A DNA stretch of 64,000 nt from an uncultured Candidatus Binatia bacterium (GTDB lineage Bacteria; Desulfobacterota; Binatia; HRBIN30), in NCBI GenBank assembly GCA_964498075.1, contig CAZCGA010000013.1:8665-72664 (forward strand), in the 5' to 3' direction. Both the position numbers and the translations under genes were made by a program. Shown here in pieces: positions 25,875 to 40,721 of the stretch; position 1 is the stretch's first letter, and every line of letters begins with the position of its first letter. The notes under the pieces are model-generated. The model was not told the DNA's origin. It saw nothing but the letters and a program-made list of their open reading frames with translations, and did no database searches.

Positions 25875-26059
25875 GCTTGTGGGCCAACGACTCGCGCTTG
25901 AGCGGCCGGCGCAGAAACGCTGACGACGAGCAATCGAGTCTTGAGCCGGCCGGCTCGAAGCGCTTGATCCTCATCAAGGCCTCCTCCCCGTCTGCCCGGC
26001 GGGGTACGGTGGCTGTAACCCACAACGACCTCCCCACCGGGGAGAGAGGAGGAGCCTTG

Positions 26060-26704
26060 ATGAACTTCTACACACAGCAACACCGACACTACTGCGGAAT
26101 CGATTTGCATGCACGCGCCATGTACGTGTGCATCCTCGATTCCGCAGGCACCGTGCTGGTGCACCGCGACCTGAGCACGACACCCGACGCCTTCCTGCAG
26201 GTGGTGGCGCCCTACCGCGCGGACCTCGTGGTCGCCGTCGAGTGCATGTTCACGTGGTACTGGCTGGCGGATCTGTGCGCGCGCGAAGGGATCGCCTTCG
26301 TGCTCGGGCACGCGCTCTACATGAAAGCGATCCACGGTGGCAAGGCGAAGAACGATCGGATCGACGCCCACAAGGCCGCGGTGCTGCTGCGCGGGAGCAT
26401 GCTGCCGCAGGCGTACGTGTACCCGGCGGCGCTGCGCGCCACCCGCGACCTGCTGCGCCGACGCTGCCACCTCACGCGCAAGCGCGCCGAGCTGCTGGCC
26501 CACATCCAGAACACCACCAGCCAGTACAATCTGCCCGCGCTGGGGAAAAAGATCGCCTACAAGGCCAATCGCGCCGGCGTCGCCGAACGCTTTGCAGATC
26601 CCAGCGTCCGCACGAGCATCGCGCTGGACCTGGCCCTGATCGACCACTACGACACGCTGCTGACCGCGGTCGAGCTCACCATCATCCGCGCCTACTGTCG
26701 ATGA
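26060..26704 (+). mobile_element. IS110-family transposase gene, 3'-truncated (N-terminal DEDD domain only)
   Basis: The ATG at 26060 follows the RBS 'ggagagaggagg'. 'YCGIDLHARAMYVCILDSAGTVL', 'VAVECMFTWYWLADL' and 'KNDRIDA' are present. The ORF stops after ~214 aa with no Transposase_20/HhH C-terminal domain in any frame downstream. Confidence 0.7.
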
Positions 26705-27136
26705 CCTTTCGATGCGCAACTCAATGCTTGCCTCCCAGACGTGCTTCCCACCTCCGCGTCGATACGAAGCGCATCCCGCTTGCTATCGCCCGATCCGATG
26801 GTCGGCCTGTGCCCTGGCTTGCCTGCGTGACCATGACCTGCCTCTGGCGATGCGACGCGAAGCTAGCGCGAGCGCCGATCAGACGTCAAGACCGTTCGAG
26901 GCCTGCACACCCGGCTCAGACACGCGAGATCCATCTCGTGGCGGACGCCTGGTTTCTGCGTCGGTCGGCTCCTTTCTTTTACACCTCCCGCGCCGGCTGT
27001 TAACCGAAGGAAACACAGTGCGCTGGGCGCACCGGCGCCGCTCTCCACGTCCGTGCTCACGCGGCGTGGCACCGACTGTGCTCACACGTTTCGCTGCACA
27101 AGCGAGTCGAACCGAGAAATCAGCGGAGGAGCAACC

Positions 27137-27646
27137 ATGGCGATTCGAAAGAGCGTGTCGTCTCTCAGCACCGCGAAGCTGACCCAGCTGCGGGCGCTAC
27201 TCGACAAGTACATCAGCAAGCCAACCGACAACCCTGTCGCCGAGCACAAGGCGGCGGGCCAGGATCCTTCCCTCATGATTCATGACATGGGGTTCATCGC
27301 CTGGCACCAGCACTTCGTCGCCAAGCTCGAGAACTGGCTGGTCATGAATGGCGGCGAAAAGTTCGTGCCGCTGCCGTATTGGGATCCCGCGAAGCCGATC
27401 CCAGCGGCGCTGAACAAAGGCAACACCGCGGTGAACCTGCCGTTGCCGGCAAGCCTCAAGCCGGCCGCGCTCAAGAAGATCAAGGGGTACGCGGCGCTCA
27501 CCAAGCGCATGGTGCCGTATCACAACAGCGTGCACAACGCCGCCGGGGGGCAGATGCCGAACGCGGATACCTCGCCATCGGATCCGATCTTCTGGCCCTT
27601 TCACGCCCTCTTGGTCGCGGTCTACGAACGCTGGCGCAATGGGTAG
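27137..27646 (+). CDS. Minimal tyrosinase-like type-3 copper protein (169 aa)
   Basis: RBS 'ggagga'. CuA-like segment 'IHDMGFIAWHQHFVAKLENW'. CuB-like segment 'YHNSVHNAAGGQM...DPIFWPFHALLVAVYERW'. Confidence 0.65.
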   Translation: MAIRKSVSSLSTAKLTQLRALLDKYISKPTDNPVAEHKAAGQDPSLMIHDMGFIAWHQHFVAKLENWLVMNGGEKFVPLPYWDPAKPIPAALNKGNTAVNLPLPASLKPAALKKIKGYAALTKRMVPYHNSVHNAAGGQMPNADTSPSDPIFWPFHALLVAVYERWRNG

Positions 27647-31560: not shown

Positions 31561-31596
31561 CTCACCAGTGGTGGATTACATACTGTGGCGGCGCGG
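31561..31596. repeat. Left copy of 36-bp perfect direct repeat (island boundary)
   Basis: 'ctcaccagtggtggattacatactgtggcggcgcgg' is identical to 39813-39848. On the minus strand it encodes '...APPQYVIHHW*', the C-terminus of the DinB-family gene. Confidence 0.9.
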
Positions 31597-31646
31597 CGTC
31601 CCCCTTGCACCTGTCTGCCGGATCGTGACAATGCAATGCTGACTTG

Positions 31647-34600
31647 ATGCAGCCGCATGTAAATCCAAGCCTGCCACCGCCGTTCCACGAGCTCGGCGAG
31701 TATCCGTTCCAAGAGTTGTGTTGCGACCTCTTTGCGGAAGAAGAATCGGTCGCGAGCTGCGAAATATTCGGCACTCGGGGACAGATGCAGCGAGGAATTG
31801 ATTTGTTCGCTCCTCGGCGCGACGGCGACGGAAGCGAGGTGGCGCAATGCAAATGTTATCGAGGCCTTTCAGTTTCAAGAATCCCTGCGGCTTCTGACAA
31901 GTTCTTCGAGCACCTGGAATATTGGCGAGCTTGCAAAGTGAAACGGTTCGTCCTGATCGCGGCTTGCCCACTCGACCGAACCGAACACCATGAAGCGATC
32001 CAGGATCAGAAGGCGCGATTCGCTCAGCATGGAATTGCGTATGAGGCGTGGTCGGCGAGGACGCTGCGCCAGAAACTGGCGCCACACCGTGCGATTGCAG
32101 AGCGGTACATTTCATCTCGAGATCTGGTCAACAGCATTTGCGGCCGGAGTGCGGGAGACGTTGTCGAGCTGCCGTCAGGGGGCGCGCACCTTGCCCGTGC
32201 GCTGGACGCGGCCGGGTCGCAGATCGCGCAGCTTTCGTCGGCGCTTTCCCGAGAGAAGTCTGCACGGCTCGAAGAGGCGCGAACACTGATCAGACGCGGC
32301 CAGAGAAGCAGCGCGTACGCCTTGGTCCGCGCGATCCGCGACGATCCAACTTGGAGCACCCTAGAGAAGCCTCTCCAAGCGAGAGTCCTTCGCGTCCTCG
32401 CCGGCTGTGTTCTCGATGTTGATGGCGATGCAGCAAGAGTGCAGACGCTAGCCGACGAGGCGCAAGCCCTAGACCCTACGGCAGACGACTCCGTCATACG
32501 CGCGGCAATCCGGTATCACGAGAACGGTCCAAGAGCAGCACTCGCCGGCCTTCCCTCGGCCGACAACATCGACACGTTGAACTACCGGCTCGGGCTCTTG
32601 CTCGAACTCGGAGAGACCGAGCAGTTCCTGGCAATCCTGGCTAACGGACCCGACACGATCGAGGTGAACGCCGAAACGCTCCGCATACAAGCGCTGGCGT
32701 CGGTCACCACGAGAGATCTTGCCGGAGCTCGAAGGCTTGTCGACCGGGCACTGGCTCAGGAACCGGAATGGGAAAGCGTGCGAGTGGCTGCGGGCGTTGT
32801 CGAGTACTACTCGGCTTTGTCCGCGGCCGCCTTACCCGAGCAGCTCCCTCCCGTTCCCGGCCCCGTTCCGTGGGAATTCATTAAGCGGGATGACGAAAGC
32901 CGCGAGTATCTCCGAAGCGCAGAGAATCGGTTCCATCTCCTGTCAACAAGCCCTGAGCGCCCGCCGGAGTGGCGCCGCGTATTCTCCCTCTGGAGATTCG
33001 CCTGCTTGGCGAACGATCCGAATAGACAACCCGAAGCATCGGAACTCTGTCGCTCTCTTCTATCCGACGAACCTGGCGATCCGAGGGTTCTCATGTGGGC
33101 CTTGGCCCGCGGGTACGATGTCGATATTGCCGCGAGCCGGACGTTCGTCGAGGCGAGCTTGTCTGAGGCACCCGATGCGCCTGATGCTGCTTCACTTCTC
33201 GTGGCAATGTGCCTTTCGCAGGGTAAATCGGCTGAGGCGCTGGAGCTTCTGGACCGCACGAAGGACGTTTTCGTGCAGGCCGGGCTCCTGGAGCGATGGC
33301 TATTCTGGCGGGTTCAGGTGTTGTCGGCGCGTGGCGCTGTAGCGGAGGCGTTGCAGGTCGCGGATTCTTGCAAAGATGCGGCCGCTCGTCGCCAACTCCG
33401 CCAGCTCGCTCTGCAGGGAAAGTTCGAGCAGGACGGCCAATGGCAGGAGCTGTTGCAGCATCTCGAGTCTTCATTTGAAGAGACTGGCGACCCACGTCTG
33501 CTGTACGACGCTTGCAACCTCAAGGCTCGTCTTGAGGACTGGCCATATGTTGCGGATCGAGCGAACAGATTGCTCGAGTTGATCGGGACGCCGGCTGCCG
33601 TCCACCTCGCAGCTGGTAGTCTCTGGAACGCAAAGCGGTTCACGGCGTGCTTGAAGCTGCTAGACAACGGATCGCGAGTCTTCCCCGGCGGTTCCCTCCC
33701 GCGAGAGCTTCGCCGCCTCCGAATCTACTGCATGCAAGAGGTCGGGCTCGTTTCCAAGGCGGTCGTTGAGGCTGAGCACCTGAGTCATGAGGAACAGAAT
33801 ACTGACAATCTGCTCGCATTGATCCAGTCGCTAGTTCTCACCGGAGACCTCAAGCGAGTTGCGGTGTCGGCCCGGTCTCTATCGGCTCAAGATGACGTTC
33901 CAGCGCGGGATCTGTTACGCGTGGGGCGGCTGCTGGTGTCGGAGGATGTCAACCTGGGTCGCCAGCTCTGGCGCCGAGCCGTTCAGCTCGATCTCTCGGA
34001 CCCGACCACACTCACCGCGGCCGTCGATCTCGCCTATCGGCTCGGGCTCGAGGAAGAGGTGCGTCCCCTGCTGGAACGGATGCACGCGCTTGCGGCCGAG
34101 GGTTCTCCCGCCGTACGGAGAGTGGGGTTCGCCGAATTGATCTCGATGTCGCGCGCTTGGGCGGAGCAGCTGCCCGCAGTTGAAACCACATACCGATCAG
34201 GCCAGGTCCCCGTCCACGTTCTCGCCCAATTGCTGAAAGTGCCGCTCGTGAATCTAATTCCAGGAACCGGTAGGCGGAATCGAATTAGTCCCGATCCACG
34301 GCACCAATTACCTATGCTGATTCGCCACGGAAACCGGGGTGCGGGAGAGACATCCATCCTGGGAGATAACACGCGTCGGCTGCACATCGACATTACGGGC
34401 ATGCTGGCCGCGCACGACCTCGGAATACTTGACGCCGTCGAGCGCTGCTTCAAGGCTCTATGGATTTCACCCTCGGCCATGCCCGCCTTGGTCGTCCAGC
34501 TGGCCACCTTGGTTCCCCAGCAGCCCGTGCATCTTTCCGGTCAAAAGCATGTTCTCGAGCTGCTGGAGCGTCAAGGACTCTGCGCGACAGAGGCTCCTAC

Positions 34601-37600
34601 TGCGCCGCCTCGCGGAGATCCCCATCTCGTCCGCCGAATGGGAATCGAATGGATCGGCGTGCTGGAGAGAGCGGCGGCGCAAAACGGCTACCTCGTAGAG
34701 CACCTTCCGCTGACCAGCAACGACGACACGCGTTCCCTCGTCACGCTGAGCGAACGCGATGCCGCACGCATAGTCAACTGCCGAACTCTGGTCGACGCTC
34801 TCCGGCGCGATGGCGTTCTGTCGTCCGACGCACACAGCAAGGCCATCGACCGACTCGGCAACGAGGGCATTCAACGTTCCGATACAGTGCCCCCGGAGCG
34901 GGGATCGATTGTATATCTGGTCGCAAGTACGGCGGGCGTTTTGGCCGATTCGAATCTCCTGGACCTGATCTGTGATCACTTCGAGGTCTACGTAGACCGA
35001 CGATACGTGGAACAAATCCGTTCCGAGCTCGCCGGTGTCGATGCGGCGGGAGTCCTACGCGGTTGGCTCCAAACCCTGGTCGACAGAGTTCGAAACGGAT
35101 TGATGAGCGGCGTCTACCAAACCACGCAGGTCGATGACGAAGCACCAAAGCTACAAGCGGCGGAGAGGGGGGGCGTCAGCCTCGACGTTCGAGCACTGGG
35201 TGACCTCCTTGCATTCGCAGTTCAATCGGGTGACGCCATCTGGGTTGACGATCGCTATGTTACCTCGTTCTCGAATCGCGACGGAGCGCCCGTCGTGGGG
35301 ATACTGGAGGTGCTTCAAGAACTCCGTTCGCGCTGCGCGATTGACGAGCCTCAGTACTACGAGAAGCTGCTGCAACTCCGCGCGTCCAACGCGCGATACG
35401 TCGCTCTGACGCCTGAGGAGCTCCTCTACTACCTCAAGGACGCTCCAATCACCGAGGGTCGCCTGGTCGAGACCAACGCGCTGTCCACGCTGCGCCGGTA
35501 TGTTGCCGCCTGTCTTCTTGATCGCGCCCCCTTGCAACGTGGACCCGCACCGCAAGGCCGGGCCTCGCCATATGGCGAACTCAATTTCGTGTTCCAGACA
35601 TTGACCGCAGTGACCCTGACGCTCTGTCGCTGCTTCGGAGAAGCTCCATCCATCGAGAGCGCTCAAGCGTGGGCCGATTGGCTGTTGTACAACGTGTATA
35701 CCGGTACCTTCGGCGTGCGGGAGCTACTGGTTGCTGACATCAGTGGCGACGGCCTTGACTTCATCGGCCGGGACCTCGCAGTTGCAATCTGGGGTATGCT
35801 GACCGTCTTGGCTGACTCCGGCGCAGGCGCGACCGATGAGACGCGAAGTCGCTACATGCACTGGATCGAGGAACGCATTCTCCGCAGACGTTTCAAGGCG
35901 GACCCGGCCGTGATTCTGCCGACGTACCTCGCGTTGAAGGCAGTCGTGATCGACAAATTGAACGCCTACCCCGAGAGTACGCCTGAGGGCGCAGTCTACC
36001 GAATCGCGTTGCAGCGGATGTTCTTGGAAGCCCCGCCGGCGGTTCGAGACGAAGTCAAACGCGATCCCGAGCTGTTTCCTCGCATCGGGCTGGCCGTCAC
36101 TTGGACGATTCAGGTCGGACCCGTAACCTTTAGCGCGCCGGAGTTCTTTCGTGCAGCGGCGGATGCGATCAATGGGCGCGAAGCCGTGGTGTGTGCCCAG
36201 GGCGCGACATCGTCATTCACGGTGAGGAAGGCTTCCAGGCAAGGGGACGAGCGCCTCGCCATCGAAGTAGTCGAGCAACAAGGAAGCACGCAGTTGCGCG
36301 CATCCGACCCCATATTCCGCCTCTTGCAAGACTCGCCTGCCGAACGAGAGGCGGTGCTCCGCGAGAACCGAAACTGGTTCGATTGTGAGGCATCGCGGTG
36401 CGAAGCCGCGATCAATGAGATCATGAGCACGGCCGATCCGGCATTACGCATCGAACGGTTAGAGAGACGGCGGGCTTCTTCGGCGGCGTGCTACTACGAG
36501 CGCATCGCTGAGGAACTTGAGCATTCAAGAAGCTTCGACATCAACGACCTCTTGCCGCCGTCGGCCAGTGATCTGCTCAGCCACTTTAGGCTCGATATTT
36601 CAGAAGCAGGCAACGACCGGAGTTTCAAGGCGATGTTGTCCGAGGCTTCTGAGCAGTTGATCGCGGAGGAGGGGATCAAGGAAGCTCTCGGTCGTGTAGC
36701 ATCCTTCCCCGTTCCCACTCCAGCCCCACTTCTGCGGGAGCTAAAGAACCTGACAAGTTCCGCGCGCAACCAGATTATCGAGGCGCTGGAGAGGCAATGT
36801 CATTCACCTATAGGGCTCTTGCACGTGATTGAGCTCGCGGTGCCACTTTTGAGTGATGACGAGATACCACGCCAAATCGCGATTCGCGCCATGGATGCGC
36901 TATTCGACGAGCCCGCGGCCACAAGAGAATTCGAATTGTTTCACGCAATCCTAGAGAGGGTACACACGGAGCTGTCGAGCTGGGTGGACGTCAGCACGTG
37001 GCCGGCCTCGGTCAAGCTTGCCGTTGCTTGGGCCCACAGCCACAAGCTGCACGCCATATTCTCCAGCACCCTCGCGGATGCAGACAAGCTCGCGGAATGG
37101 ATCGAACAGGCAGGATCGCAGATGGGCAGCGAATCGCTGGGCCGACAACCGGAAACGTGGAACGACGCACTCCATCCCAGATTGCTTCGCCGAGAGGACA
37201 TTCTTACGCACGGTCTTGCGTCGGTGTTGCAGGGCAGCAGCGCAGAAACAATCGAGTCGCTGCGGATTCCGGAGCGAATCCGCTCAATCATTTTCGGCGG
37301 CCCGCTTGGGGCTCAGTTGCCGGGCGGGCCGCTATTGAGAGATCCAGCGTTGACGAGAAATTGCGCCGGCTCGATCTTCGGCGGTGACCGGGCCACTGTG
37401 TTGCGTGCGGTCGTCGGTGCCGAAGTGTCGGAGTCGGTCTCGTCTGCGTCTCTTCATGGCGTGGTTAGTCGCGCCCTCGACGTCCTCAAGTATGACGTCG
37501 CTTCTCAATATGCCTGGGTGGTTGTCACCTCCATTGTTTGTGATCTTCCCATCCACGAGGACTTGCGGGAAGAGCTGAGAGCTATCCTCTTCGCGGTGGA

Positions 37601-38033
37601 TCTAGAGGCACTGTGGTCGCGAGATGCGTTCTCGGGCTATCTCGCTATCCGTTTCGCTGCAGGGCAGGTAGCGCACATCGACGACTGTGCACTTCGCGCC
37701 AGCGTGGAAGAGGCTCTCGTCAAGATCGCGCACCATCTCGATGGGCTCGGGAAACGGCAGAATCAACTCAGCGCCCCTGTGAGCATCGAGGACCACGCCA
37801 TCAACCTGATTGACGCGGCATTGCGTATTGCCCACTACCCTGGCGAGGAACAGAAGACGAGCACCCGGTCGGCGCAACTGCTCATCAAGCTTCTCAATGC
37901 CTCATCCGCCGTCTCGGAATCAGTGAGGAGTACCGCGCCCCGACTCGTTTGGGAACTCCCCGCCAGACAGCTCCACGGGATGTGGCAAGTAGAGCTGGAG
38001 TTGCGGGCAAGGGCGGGTGGACAGGCCGTCTAG
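31647..38033 (+). CDS. Giant 2,128-aa multidomain protein: N-terminal Mrr-like PD-(D/E)xK nuclease signature, TPR-like repeats, PIN-like central region, long helical C-terminus
   Basis: Uninterrupted 6.4-kb ORF; I prefer the ATG at 31647 over the TTG at 31644. 'PFQELCCDLF...GIDLFAPRRDGDGSEVAQCKCY' gives an E...D...QxK pattern. Helical hairpin repeats span roughly aa 200-820. 'RRLHIDITGMLAA' and 'GDAIWVDDRY' are PIN-like acidic strands. There is no GxxxxGK[ST]. Confidence 0.7.
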   Translation: MQPHVNPSLPPPFHELGEYPFQELCCDLFAEEESVASCEIFGTRGQMQRGIDLFAPRRDGDGSEVAQCKCYRGLSVSRIPAASDKFFEHLEYWRACKVKRFVLIAACPLDRTEHHEAIQDQKARFAQHGIAYEAWSARTLRQKLAPHRAIAERYISSRDLVNSICGRSAGDVVELPSGGAHLARALDAAGSQIAQLSSALSREKSARLEEARTLIRRGQRSSAYALVRAIRDDPTWSTLEKPLQARVLRVLAGCVLDVDGDAARVQTLADEAQALDPTADDSVIRAAIRYHENGPRAALAGLPSADNIDTLNYRLGLLLELGETEQFLAILANGPDTIEVNAETLRIQALASVTTRDLAGARRLVDRALAQEPEWESVRVAAGVVEYYSALSAAALPEQLPPVPGPVPWEFIKRDDESREYLRSAENRFHLLSTSPERPPEWRRVFSLWRFACLANDPNRQPEASELCRSLLSDEPGDPRVLMWALARGYDVDIAASRTFVEASLSEAPDAPDAASLLVAMCLSQGKSAEALELLDRTKDVFVQAGLLERWLFWRVQVLSARGAVAEALQVADSCKDAAARRQLRQLALQGKFEQDGQWQELLQHLESSFEETGDPRLLYDACNLKARLEDWPYVADRANRLLELIGTPAAVHLAAGSLWNAKRFTACLKLLDNGSRVFPGGSLPRELRRLRIYCMQEVGLVSKAVVEAEHLSHEEQNTDNLLALIQSLVLTGDLKRVAVSARSLSAQDDVPARDLLRVGRLLVSEDVNLGRQLWRRAVQLDLSDPTTLTAAVDLAYRLGLEEEVRPLLERMHALAAEGSPAVRRVGFAELISMSRAWAEQLPAVETTYRSGQVPVHVLAQLLKVPLVNLIPGTGRRNRISPDPRHQLPMLIRHGNRGAGETSILGDNTRRLHIDITGMLAAHDLGILDAVERCFKALWISPSAMPALVVQLATLVPQQPVHLSGQKHVLELLERQGLCATEAPTAPPRGDPHLVRRMGIEWIGVLERAAAQNGYLVEHLPLTSNDDTRSLVTLSERDAARIVNCRTLVDALRRDGVLSSDAHSKAIDRLGNEGIQRSDTVPPERGSIVYLVASTAGVLADSNLLDLICDHFEVYVDRRYVEQIRSELAGVDAAGVLRGWLQTLVDRVRNGLMSGVYQTTQVDDEAPKLQAAERGGVSLDVRALGDLLAFAVQSGDAIWVDDRYVTSFSNRDGAPVVGILEVLQELRSRCAIDEPQYYEKLLQLRASNARYVALTPEELLYYLKDAPITEGRLVETNALSTLRRYVAACLLDRAPLQRGPAPQGRASPYGELNFVFQTLTAVTLTLCRCFGEAPSIESAQAWADWLLYNVYTGTFGVRELLVADISGDGLDFIGRDLAVAIWGMLTVLADSGAGATDETRSRYMHWIEERILRRRFKADPAVILPTYLALKAVVIDKLNAYPESTPEGAVYRIALQRMFLEAPPAVRDEVKRDPELFPRIGLAVTWTIQVGPVTFSAPEFFRAAADAINGREAVVCAQGATSSFTVRKASRQGDERLAIEVVEQQGSTQLRASDPIFRLLQDSPAEREAVLRENRNWFDCEASRCEAAINEIMSTADPALRIERLERRRASSAACYYERIAEELEHSRSFDINDLLPPSASDLLSHFRLDISEAGNDRSFKAMLSEASEQLIAEEGIKEALGRVASFPVPTPAPLLRELKNLTSSARNQIIEALERQCHSPIGLLHVIELAVPLLSDDEIPRQIAIRAMDALFDEPAATREFELFHAILERVHTELSSWVDVSTWPASVKLAVAWAHSHKLHAIFSSTLADADKLAEWIEQAGSQMGSESLGRQPETWNDALHPRLLRREDILTHGLASVLQGSSAETIESLRIPERIRSIIFGGPLGAQLPGGPLLRDPALTRNCAGSIFGGDRATVLRAVVGAEVSESVSSASLHGVVSRALDVLKYDVASQYAWVVVTSIVCDLPIHEDLREELRAILFAVDLEALWSRDAFSGYLAIRFAAGQVAHIDDCALRASVEEALVKIAHHLDGLGKRQNQLSAPVSIEDHAINLIDAALRIAHYPGEEQKTSTRSAQLLIKLLNASSAVSESVRSTAPRLVWELPARQLHGMWQVELELRARAGGQAV

Positions 38034-38392: not shown

Positions 38393-38480
38393 ATGCACAT
38401 AGGCTGTCAGCACTCAGCTGTCAGCCATCAGCTCGAAGCGGTTCACGTCCGCAGATGCTCAGAGGATTGCCGGGCGAATT
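38393..38480. repeat. ~85-bp dispersed repeat, copy 1
   Basis: 'atgcacataggctgtcagcactcagctgtcagccatcagctcgaagcggttcacgt...' aligns with 39536-39618. The core of ~55 bp is ~90 % identical apart from a 6-nt indel, and similarity is weaker beyond it. Confidence 0.75.
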
Positions 38481-38635: not shown

Positions 38636-39010
38636 CTAGACATCACGCGCAATCGGCAGCAGCCGAATGCGCACCGCGGCATCTTCGACGGTGACGATGG
38701 CGCCTTGGCGGAGCGAGTCTTCAATGTCCGCCCAGCATTCGCTGAACCTGCGAAACAGCGCCTCGGGGTGGGTATTGCGCACCCGAAAGATGATGACCGA
38801 CGGACCTGCTACGCCGGAGAAGGCGAGCAGATGGCCGTAGTCCAGGTCGTGGGTGACGATGACTTCGCCACCCGCCTTTGCTGCCTTGATGATCTCCGGG
38901 TCCTCGGCTCGCTCCAGCCCGATGTCTTGCGCGTGTCGGCATGGATGCCCAGCCGCCACCAATCGCGGAGCCAACTGGGGCAGCACGTTCATGTTCAGCA
39001 GCAGCTTCAC
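38636..39010 (-). CDS. DUF5615-family PIN-like protein (putative toxin)
   Basis: The GTG start at 39010 overlaps the DUF433 stop (GTGA). '[32 protein letters not shown]...[14 protein letters not shown]...PSVIIFR' is present. Confidence 0.7.
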
Positions 39011-39255
39011 GCCGCGGCCTCTGCGCGTGGCACAATGCGCTCCTCCATGGCCCACGCCGCGTAACCGAGTGCTTCGTAGACATCCTCACGCTCCAACTCG
39101 GGCCACTCGGCCAGGATCTCGTCGATCGTCATACCCGAGCTGAGATAGCTGAGGATCGAAGCCACCGGCATCCGCAGCCCGCGGATACAGGGCTTTCCAA
39201 AGCACTTGTTCGGGTCGAGTGTGATGCGCTGAAACCGATAATGACGGATCTCCAT
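39007..39255 (-). CDS. DUF433-family protein (putative antitoxin)
   Basis: '[57 protein letters not shown]' is the canonical DUF433 pattern. Confidence 0.8.
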
Positions 39256-39289: not shown

Positions 39290-39541
39290 GGCTGGCCCAC
39301 CGCGCAGCAACGAGCCGAACTTGTCGGTGAGCCTGCCGAAGCGGGCGCCCCAGAACGTCTCGTGGATTGCCATCCTGATCGTGCCGCCTTCACAGGGCTT
39401 GGCCCACACGCGGTTGTGTTTCTCGATGCTGTCGAGCGCTATGATCAACCCAATCGGCGAGCTGGGCGGCGCCGGCGGCTTTCCGAGCATGCCGTCAGAC
39501 GCCATGAACACCACGCCCTCGGCCTCGAACTCGGCATGCAC
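39290..39541 (-). pseudogene. 5'-truncated VOC/PhnB-like (glyoxalase-fold) gene fragment
   Basis: 'HAEFEAEGVVFMASD...EGGTIRMAIHETFWGARFGRLTDKFG' corresponds to the C-terminal two-thirds of PhnB-like proteins. The fragment begins exactly at repeat copy 2. Its 3' end reads through into the DUF433 gene. Confidence 0.45.
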
Positions 39542-39618
39542 ATATGCTGTCAGTACTCAGCTGTCAGCTCGGAGCGGTTCACGTTTCGCACAGGCGCGGA
39601 AGATTGCAGGCGAGATCG
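39536..39618. repeat. ~85-bp dispersed repeat, copy 2
   Basis: 'atgcacatatgctgtcagtactcagctgtcagctcggagcggttcacgt...' is in the same orientation as copy 1. Confidence 0.75.
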
Positions 39619-39812: not shown

Positions 39813-39848
39813 CTCACCAGTGGTGGATTACATACTGTGGCGGCGCGG
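39813..39848. repeat. Right copy of 36-bp perfect direct repeat (island boundary)
   Basis: Identical to 31561-31596. Here it forms the authentic 3' end (last 11 codons plus stop) of the DinB-family CDS. Confidence 0.9.
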
Positions 39849-40386
39849 TCGCCTGGTCGTTGGCCTGAACCCGCTCGGACTGCGGCGGGCCCACCGGCGG
39901 CTTGCCCATCTCGGCGCAGATGCGGCGGATGTACTTGGTGTGCGAGTACTCGTGATTGATCATCCGCCGAAACACCTCCGCCGCTTCCATCGCGGCTTCG
40001 GGACTGCGGATGGCACGGAAACGCAGCCCCGCCAACCCCAGCGTGCGGGTACGCACGGCCTGCGCGTACTCGAGGATCGCCGCGCCTGACGGCAGGCGCG
40101 CGTCGCGGTTGTTGACGTTGTGCACACCGAACCCGTCCTGCAACGCTGGCGTCGCCAGCAGCAGCTGGCTGGCGGCGTTTGCCGCTTCCATGTCCTCGAC
40201 GAGCGCGATGTGGCCGAAATGGTAGCTGATACTGATCCCGTCCGGCCGCGGCGGCAGCCACAGCAGCTCGGCCTGCGACAGCGACTCGATCATGCTGTAC
40301 AAGTGCCCTCGCGCCGCGTGCAGCTCCTGGCAGAGGACGCTATAGGTCGGGGCAGCGGTTGCGTGCCCGGGTGACGTCTCGGCCAT
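39814..40386 (-). CDS. DinB-family (DinB_2-like) metal-dependent protein
   Basis: Start is the ATG at 40386 ('MAETSPGH...'). The His triad context is 'SYHFGHIALVED' and 'INHEYSHTKYI'. Confidence 0.65.
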   Translation of the reverse strand: MAETSPGHATAAPTYSVLCQELHAARGHLYSMIESLSQAELLWLPPRPDGISISYHFGHIALVEDMEAANAASQLLLATPALQDGFGVHNVNNRDARLPSGAAILEYAQAVRTRTLGLAGLRFRAIRSPEAAMEAAEVFRRMINHEYSHTKYIRRICAEMGKPPVGPPQSERVQANDQATAPPQYVIHHW

Positions 40387-40721
40387 TCGGCTACGCTTCC
40401 ACAACGCCGTGGCTCCAGCAAGCCTTCCGCCCCGGCGCTCGCACGATGTGTCAACCGATTCGGTGGCTGGTTCGTTCCACTCGTGAGGAGCGATCCGAAA
40501 TAGAAGCACGAATGCGCCTTCCCCCCCAACCCCCTTCGGACGCATTCTCAACCACGCGCCAGGCCCTGTCGGATGCCGTCGCCCCCCCGATACGTATTCG
40601 ACACCTGGCGCGTGGTCGTCCCGCCGGATCCTTCAGTGGAGGCGCGGCCGCGCCGATCGATCTGTCAACCGCCGCCGGCGCTCGTTCGCGTCCAACACCA
40701 AGCCGCGGAGAAGATCATCGG

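Follow-up and report, generated by a model that had tools for sequence, protein, structure and literature searches.

The gene under study lies in a window of 64,000 nt, the whole stretch of DNA that was analysed (contig CAZCGA010000013.1 of assembly GCA_964498075.1, from an uncultured Candidatus Binatia bacterium), and encodes a single protein of 2,128 aa. The protein consists of an N-terminal nuclease-type head joined to a much longer body, in which a solenoid of TPR-like repeats is followed by a helix–turn–helix (HTH) domain, two PIN-like domains, a helical spacer, a small β-rich domain and a C-terminal helical region (Table 1). An earlier reading of the same DNA, referred to below as the original prediction, had proposed that this giant protein is a single-gene immunity or conflict system with a nuclease–TPR–PIN-like layout and no NTPase.

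Table 1. Features of the giant gene and of the insertion that carries it, in window coordinates.
Feature	Position	Strand	Basis or remark
Giant gene	31647..38033	+	2,128 codons and stop; 14 full-length homologues
Mrr-type PD-(D/E)xK nuclease head, aa 1-170, with D27, D52 and Q67-x-K69	31647..32156	+	AlphaFold, Foldseek, residue conservation
TPR-like α-solenoid, aa ~195-824, in the constant region	32229..34118	+	sub-threshold TPR families
HTH_upstream_double_PIN domain, aa 828-897	34128..34337	+	PF24407, E 7e-16, 58.7 bits against a cut-off of 27
PIN-like domain A, aa ~905-1085, D915 after strand 1, E1018 after strand 4	34359..34901	+	PF20698, model, conservation
PIN-like domain B, aa ~1086-1235, with D1201-D1202-R1203	34902..35351	+	hhalign to domain A, conservation
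Helical spacer, aa ~1236-1483	35352..36095	+	AlphaFold secondary structure; R1245, E1275 and E1311 near-invariant across 161 sequences
Small β-rich domain, aa ~1484-1555, candidate circularly permuted GreA/B C-terminal domain	36096..36311	+	PF24388 sub-threshold, model
Constant C-terminal helical region, ~570 aa	36312..38030	+	tail kept in the family
Left 36-nt direct repeat copy, att-like boundary	31561..31596		100% identical to 39813-39848; 50 nt upstream of the start codon
Right 36-nt direct repeat copy	39813..39848		covers the stop and last codons of the DinB_2-family gene
DUF5615 (PIN-like toxin family) and DUF433 gene pair	38639..39255	-	PF18480 E 9e-22; PF04255 E 3e-25
DinB_2-family gene	39814-40551	-	3' end overlapped by the right repeat

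The open reading frame (ORF) extends over 31644..38033, and translation from the ATG at 31647 gives 2,128 aa without interruption (ORF listing and translation). This start agrees with the N-termini of the homologues in the alignment. The full-length homologues are 2,000-2,144 aa long, and the ratio of non-synonymous to synonymous substitution (dN/dS) is 0.14 between the relatives P0005 and P0006, which are 84% identical; the ORF is therefore a real coding sequence, and translation of one giant protein, as first proposed, is supported. All nine peptides quoted in the original prediction are found in the translation, with coordinates that were off by a few nt at most. In the head these are PFQELCCDLF (aa 20-29), GIDLFA (nt 31794-31811), VAQCKCY (nt 31839-31859, given earlier as 31842-31853) and KRFVLIAACP (aa 99-108). 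The central peptides are RRLHIDITGMLAA (nt 34374-34412), IVYLVASTAGVLADS (nt 34908-34952) and GDAIWVDDRY (nt 35229-35258), and those of the β-rich domain are VTWTIQVGPVTFSAPEF (nt 36096-36146) and AVVCAQGATSSFTV (nt 36183-36224).

A Pfam scan of the whole protein gives PF24407 (HTH_upstream_double_PIN) as the sole match over threshold, and scanning the protein in segments adds weak matches at the regions that the original prediction had named. Neither a strict nor a loose Walker A pattern occurs in the 2,128 aa, and no P-loop or other NTPase family is found in Pfam, NCBIfam or PADLOC scans of the protein, in keeping with the NTPase-free layout first described. Membership of the STAND/Avs group is ruled out by the lack of a P-loop NTPase. 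A search of PDB sequences with the whole protein gave no match.

The head is modelled by AlphaFold with a pLDDT of 89.5 and a pTM of 0.83, and its core has the order α-β-β-β-α-β. Comparison of this model with the PDB by Foldseek returns EcoT38I, EcoO109I, Avs4, Can2, N.BspD6I and Cap4, with probabilities of 0.77-1.00 but E-values of merely 1e-3 to 7e-2. The highest TM-score belongs to Avs4 (TM 0.52, probability 1.00, root mean squared deviation 4.2 Å, 20% identity). Structure prediction with Foldseek had been named in the original prediction as a check on its Mrr-type fold, and the confident model, its core order and the matches to restriction enzymes and Avs4 bear that fold out. At the sequence level Mrr_cat_2 matches the window protein weakly (aa 45-73, E 0.018, 15.4 bits against a cut-off of 22). 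Mrr_cat or Mrr_cat_2 is matched in three of the 15 closest relatives and in one of 23 further family members, a set picked mostly for heads other than restriction endonuclease (REase) heads.

A firmer connection to Pfam comes from a profile of the head, built from aa 1-185 (alignment A3) and run on 23 loci from species-representative genomes. These loci had been located by a hand-made DNA pattern for GQxQxGID-14 aa-QCKC; a single-protein search of genome contigs with the window protein found no relative. Matches to the head profile reach E 1e-87 among the 23 loci, and three of them are ORFs that lack the core of the present family. In two of these the head is followed by a NACHT NTPase (L025 from Verrucomicrobiia, E 1e-34; L031 from Planctomycetes, E 1e-36), and in the third it precedes an nSTAND5-type NTPase (L013 from Deinococcales, E 7e-37). 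The window head can be linked to Mrr_cat because the two NACHT-fused heads, themselves matched by the profile, exceed the gathering thresholds of both Mrr_cat and Mrr_cat_2. The Mrr-type head also appears, from these comparisons, to move between NTPase-based and NTPase-free immune scaffolds.

The residues expected of a PD-(D/E)xK site are strongly conserved among the aligned heads: D52 is present in 74/74, Q67 in 71/75 and K69 in 72/75, and the helix acid D27 is D or E in 67/72. Of the E...D...QxK motif first proposed, the near-invariant D52 and Q67-x-K69 stand; E23 is variable, and the acid on the helix is D27. The assignment of the head to the Mrr-type PD-(D/E)xK nucleases is established at the level of fold and motif, and the head would be expected to be enzymatically active.

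The solenoid that follows the head had been described as TPR-like repeats at aa ~200-820, and repeated sub-threshold matches to TPR and ANAPC3 models in the protein and its relatives agree with this. In the window protein ANAPC3, TPR_14 and TPR_19 match below threshold, with TPR families at aa 340-540 in the segment scan; in relatives the same families recur, TPR_19 reaching 1e-9 and ANAPC3 2e-8. A profile of the ~630-aa region aligns end to end across the family, including members with other N-terminal heads. The HTH domain that joins the solenoid to the PIN-like module is found, as PF24407, in 13 of the 15 closest relatives and in all 23 further members.

The central region was modelled with AlphaFold as a core of aa 825-1570 (746 aa, nine aligned sequences), with a mean pLDDT of 82 and a pTM of 0.73. 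In this model three helices, which form the HTH segment, are followed by two α/β modules, a helical stretch and the β domain. The first strand of module A ends at D915, and the fourth strand of module B ends at D1201-D1202. PF20698, described as the 'PIN domain associated with the TPR-GreAB-C-PIN system', matches the window protein at aa ~914-953 (E 0.03) and is found in 5/15 closest relatives (best 4e-4) and 14/23 further members (best 1.3e-4), in every case under the gathering score. Alignment of the two domains by hhalign gives a probability of 89% and an E-value of 2e-6 over 148 columns, in which RLHIDIT is paired with IVYLVAS and YLVEHLPL with AIWVDDRY. The PIN-like modules appear to be a tandem duplication, as the Pfam name 'double PIN' implies, and each probably has a PIN fold.

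Conservation within the core was measured on 161 sequences, which comprise representatives of clusters at 50% identity together with the window protein. D915 is D in 155/158, within a D-[IV]-[TS] motif, and position 1018 is D or E in 130/156. The motif of the second module is stricter still, with D1201 in 159/161, D1202 in 161/161 and R1203 in 160/161. The acidic set is divided between the two copies, such that copy A keeps the acids of strand 1 and strand 4, and copy B lacks the strand-1 Asp but has the DD pair. The PIN-like centre of the original prediction is supported by PF24407, PF20698 and the near-invariant D915, D1201 and D1202, with one exception: the IVYLVAS strand, which is the first strand of the second copy, carries no conserved acid. 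Conservation of the proposed catalytic residues had been named as a check, and the acids of head and PIN module are near-invariant among ~160 representatives of no more than 50% identity to one another.

One relative, P0008, lacks ~180 aa from the middle of copy A to the middle of copy B (columns ~960-1200 of alignment A1). D915 and the DDR motif are both still present, and lie as far apart as they would in one PIN domain. This variant prompted the alternative of a single PIN domain with an insertion, which was rejected as the internal profile match favours tandem duplication. From the same match P0008 is read as a deletion that fused two copies. As a natural 'fused' variant it could reveal how the PIN copies cooperate.

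Beyond the helical spacer, the patch at ~nt 36090-36330 that had been noted as β-rich is modelled as a discrete domain (aa 1487-1553) with the order β-β-α-β-β-β-β, in which F1495 and F1500 are conserved. PF24388 (Permuted_GreAB-C) matches the window protein at aa ~1491-1513 (E 0.14) and recurs in 16/38 relatives, namely 7/15 of the closest (best 8e-4) and 9/23 of the further members (best 3.2e-5), never above threshold. PF24407, PF24388 and PF20698 all recur at homologous positions in relatives of 25-45% identity; such a recurrence of a few Pfam families would be hard to ascribe to chance. The helical region at the C-terminus matches no family in Pfam, NCBIfam or PADLOC.

The family is far larger than it first seemed. 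A word-indexed homology search found 14 relatives only, and the resulting impression of a rare protein was overturned by an exhaustive search with a profile of the core against 1.84 billion cluster representatives (clusters at 50% identity), which matched 2,449 clusters at E<=1e-3, 2,044 at E<=1e-10 and 1,480 at E<=1e-30. For a family that evolves this fast, rarity judged by a word-indexed search alone is badly wrong. The best hits of the core-profile search and the 14 word-index relatives gave 160 family proteins for analysis. Nearly all of these carry a tail of ~550 aa after the core, and the constant body is ~1,930 aa long. Where the N-terminus of a family protein is shorter, this is mostly because the gene call is truncated.

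In contrast to this constant body, the N-terminal heads are exchanged. The REase head is present on 68 of the 111 complete N-termini, and the remainder fall into at least 20 unrelated groups. The alternatives include PNP_UDP_1 (8e-15), an α/β hydrolase of DUF676/PGAP1 type, SMEK_N (5e-43), the helical domains NNH2 (6e-8) and NNH5 (6e-33) that otherwise form the N-terminus of NACHT proteins, a weak HNH_2 and a caspase head, the last from the annotation 'caspase family protein' of a copy on a Leptolyngbya boryana plasmid; some members have heads without any match. Swapped heads that are otherwise borne by bacterial NLR/STAND proteins are a classical signature of immune and conflict proteins. In six members (P0017, P0066, P0070, P0072, P0137 and P0149) the enzymatic head is replaced by N-termini of 70-110 aa rich in Gly, Asn and Ile, for example INTGDVQINVG and IINTGDNASIIV. 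To the eye, these short Gly/Asn-rich N-termini are like the amyloid signalling motifs of bacteria that have been described for Agp/Bab.

Family members occur in cyanobacteria, Acidobacteriota, Verrucomicrobiota, Myxococcota, Planctomycetota and other groups, and the distribution is patchy over many phyla and plasmids. A copy is carried by 7 of 72,556 plasmids, and the 50,697 phage records contain no copy. Of two plasmid records that were inspected, one labels the protein 'hypothetical protein' and the other 'caspase family protein'. In a Nitrospinota metagenome-assembled genome (L027, 681-7067) the member is broken into at least four consecutive ORFs, corresponding to the head, the first part of the core and two more core pieces, and is probably a pseudogene or a frameshifted assembly.

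No conserved neighbour is found across the homologue loci examined, and the genes stand alone. The neighbourhoods are variable, and most include defence (restriction) or mobile-element genes. Beside P0013 (L009) lie McrB-McrC and an Eco57I-type methylase/restriction gene (type IIG). P0014 (L004) has Fic, DUF433, DUF5615 and TIR_2 as neighbours, and P0003 (L007) has three integrases, XisH/XisI and a MoxR-vWA pair. An integrase and an ATPase_2/DUF234 gene accompany P0007 (L002/L003), and an RHS toxin accompanies P0005 (L008). Of the plasmid copies, one lies on a conjugative plasmid next to ParA/ParB (L034). Another is the caspase-labelled member of Leptolyngbya boryana IU 594 (L033, plasmid p1, 2764-12906), which sits directly downstream of genes for multiubiquitin, a ThiF-type E1, DUF6527 and a UvrD helicase, with an IS110 transposase after it.

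The copy in the window lies in an insert delimited by the two identical 36-nt repeats (repeat family D1), which are spaced 8,252 nt from start to start. The 8.25-kb insert contains the giant gene and the DUF5615/DUF433 pair only, and no integrase is found inside it. The composition of the region is deviant: GC is 0.60-0.62 over 31-39 kb against 0.65-0.69 around it, and GC at third codon positions (GC3) is 0.68 in the giant ORF against 0.82 in the flanking S9-peptidase and DinB_2 genes. The flanks are ordinary chromosomal DNA, with the S9 peptidase upstream and, from the DinB_2-family gene onward, genes for a metal-resistance protein and a β-propeller protein. A search of metagenomes gave no match to the 36-nt repeat or to the predicted empty site, so the insertion has support from the repeats and the composition only. 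The right repeat copy at the 3' end of the DinB_2 gene is the footprint of site-specific integration into the end of a gene, and the window copy appears to have been acquired horizontally. The repeat-bounded, toxin–antitoxin-carrying and compositionally deviant insertion of the original prediction is thereby recovered in each of its parts. A second pair of direct repeats of ~55 nt, 83-94% identical (38393-38448 and 39536-39584, families D4 and D5), brackets the DUF5615/DUF433 pair, which suggests that the two genes form a small cassette of their own inside the larger insert.

The closest described counterparts are the TPR–GreA/B-C–PIN (TGP) proteins, which were identified by Kaur, Iyer, Burroughs and Aravind (eLife 2021; PMC8195603) as standalone proteins with a constant TPR/GreA/B-C/PIN region and 13 alternative heads, including an REase. 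In the model proposed there, the GreA/B-C domain engages RNA polymerase on viral DNA, the PIN domain cuts the extruded transcript, and the head is unleashed if transcript cutting fails (PMC8195603). One TGP protein, Agp of Bab/Agp, confers protection against phage T5 on E. coli, and this protection is lost when the GreA/B-C domain carries substitutions modelled on GreA mutants with a defect in polymerase binding (bioRxiv 10.1101/2024.11.07.622273). The Agp PIN mutant D762N destabilised the protein and was hence uninformative (bioRxiv 10.1101/2024.11.07.622273).

Members of the present family resemble TGP proteins in several respects. Their genes mostly stand alone, a variable N-terminal effector is placed on a constant body, and the REase head is among the 13 described for TGP. 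The body is predicted to combine TPR, PIN-type and GreA/B-C-type domains with no NTPase, and members match the TGP-specific PIN model PF20698 below threshold. However, the published order of TPR, GreA/B-C and a single C-terminal PIN is not observed; the window protein runs TPR, HTH, PIN, PIN, spacer, GreA/B-C-like domain and tail. Its PIN domain is duplicated, its GreA/B-C-like domain matches the 'permuted' PF24388 rather than the standard model, and the HTH and the ~570-aa helical tail are extra. At 2,128 aa it is also about double the length of Agp (1,094 aa), and its subfamily is a computational prediction, Agp being the validated example of TGP. The likeness to TGP claimed in the original prediction is sustained by the shared list of parts and the swapped heads, and fails on the domain order. 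The comparison supports the view that the window protein is probably a rearranged relative of the published TGP conflict systems.

Three other kinds of protein share some of these features. Avs4 (AVAST type 4, with an Mrr-like nuclease, a STAND NTPase and TPR; PDB 8dgf) similarly places an Mrr-type head before long arrays of helical repeats, whereas the window protein has no P-loop NTPase and carries its double-PIN and GreA/B-C-like module in the centre. Bacterial NLR-like (NACHT) proteins share the heads NNH2, NNH5, SMEK_N, REase, caspase and PNP_UDP with the family, which in contrast lacks the central oligomerisation NTPase. With PIN toxins of the VapC type the window protein has in common an α/β PIN-like pattern, an Asp after strand 1 in D-[IV]-[TS] and further conserved Asp residues. 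It differs from them in having no sequence match to a solved PIN domain, an acidic set split over two copies and no antitoxin partner.

What was observed directly is the architecture, the conservation of catalytic-type residues, the modularity, the mobility and standalone status of the genes and the absence of an NTPase. On this footing the window protein is probably a standalone, NTPase-free immunity protein directed against invaders (phage or plasmid), in which a swappable effector head is carried by a constant TPR/PIN/GreA/B-C-like body. It would belong to a subfamily distinguished by the HTH, two tandem PIN-like domains, a permuted GreA/B-C-like domain and a long helical tail. The body, that is the TPR solenoid, the helical tail and the GreA/B-C-like domain, may sense infection by analogy with the TGP proteins (Kaur et al., 2021) and Bab/Agp, and RNA polymerase is a possible docking site for it. 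The PIN module may cleave RNA, and the activated Mrr-type head may cut DNA, so that the invader is stopped or the cell is killed (abortive infection). Because no NTPase is present, activation would occur through ligand binding or oligomerisation and not through nucleotide exchange. The role in immunity or conflict that the original prediction had suggested is favoured, as an interpretation, by the swapped N-terminal heads and the neighbourhoods of the homologues. Taken as a whole, the original prediction proved right in its essentials.

Several results weigh against this immunity proposal or parts of it. PADLOC v2 and NCBIfam scans of the protein gave no usable match. PDB-sequence profile searches with the N-terminal head gave chance matches alone, and those with the PIN region gave chance matches and no solved PIN (a GAR domain, Rab1 and PBP2X for the two regions together). 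A Foldseek search of the PDB with the whole 746-aa core gave only spurious helical-repeat matches (best E 0.16), a query of several domains being ill suited to such a search. The PIN and GreA/B-C assignments depend on sub-threshold profile matches, and neither PIN copy has the full four-acid site, copy A having D915 and D/E1018 and copy B having D1201 and D1202. Binding of RNA polymerase is proposed purely by analogy, and the locus of P0006 (L001) shows nothing telling and no defence genes.

The partial acidic sets bear most directly on the main rival, in which the PIN-like and GreA/B-C-like domains are a non-catalytic scaffold or ligand-binding part and the Mrr head is the sole enzyme. The protein would then act as an NLR or Avs without an NTPase, the helical arrays binding a phage protein with oligomerisation to follow. 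Each PIN copy retains only part of the canonical set, the head is common to NACHT/STAND proteins and has Avs4 as its closest structural match, and other members bear the non-enzymatic NNH2/NNH5 heads typical of bacterial NLRs. For Agp too there was no clean demonstration of PIN catalysis, since D762N destabilised the protein. On the other side, D915, D1201, D1202 and R1203 are 98-100% conserved in ~160 diverged representatives, which exceeds the usual need of a scaffold, and P0008 has lost ~180 aa and yet retains D915 and DDR as a single PIN would space them. A scaffold role for the central domains is accordingly considered unlikely.

The immunity proposal can also be taken further. The double-PIN, permuted-GreA/B-C proteins could be a distinct and widespread class of NTPase-independent NLR-like sensors that guard RNA polymerase, with a composite PIN site and a two-tier release of the head. 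The GreA/B-C-like domain would dock on polymerase captured by a phage, a composite site formed from the two half-degenerate PIN copies would cut the transcript, and failure of transcript cleavage would free the swappable head, here an Mrr DNase. This extension is considered rather unlikely. If true, it would be a two-tier mechanism without described structural precedent.

Readings that do without immunity fare much worse. A housekeeping or regulatory factor in transcription or RNA turnover would agree with the contact to nucleic acid or RNA polymerase suggested by the HTH and GreA/B-C-like domains, and with the one homologue locus (L001) that lacks defence genes. It is very improbable for a family that is patchy over many phyla and plasmids, that swaps heads including nucleases, a caspase and NLR-type helical domains, that has no conserved neighbour, and whose window copy was inserted recently and deviates in composition. 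It is just as improbable that the protein serves a selfish or addiction element as its toxic cargo and, with the DUF5615/DUF433 pair, keeps the 8-kb insertion stable instead of protecting the host: the repeat-bounded insertion does hold this toxin–antitoxin-type pair and family members do occur on plasmids, but no cognate antitoxin or immunity gene is conserved beside the members, the pair is bracketed by repeats of its own and has the look of an independent cassette, and no copy is found in the 50,697 phage records.

With regard to novelty, a literature search found no paper describing the double-PIN/permuted-GreAB-C variant. It is already known to Pfam curators, as PF24407 and PF24388 are named for its features, so the novelty is modest. 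The predicted kind of protein has already been described computationally, and the window protein is much commoner in kind than the first homology search indicated. The family comprises at least 1,480 clusters at 50% identity, yet it is absent from PADLOC v2. Since its members combine NLR/Avs-type heads with the lack of an NTPase, they are well suited to studying how an immune protein made of one giant chain can be switched on when there is no nucleotide exchange. They are also relevant to the question whether cells generally defend themselves by monitoring RNA polymerase with a GreA/B-like domain. For annotation, the gene now has a concrete domain map and candidate sites for point mutants.

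The region 5 kb upstream of the giant gene also looks rearranged. At 25877-27646 of the window an IS110-type transposase fragment (PF01548, in a 275-aa ORF) and a short tyrosinase-domain ORF (197 aa) sit between ECF/ABC transporter genes and an FAD-dependent halogenase-like gene.

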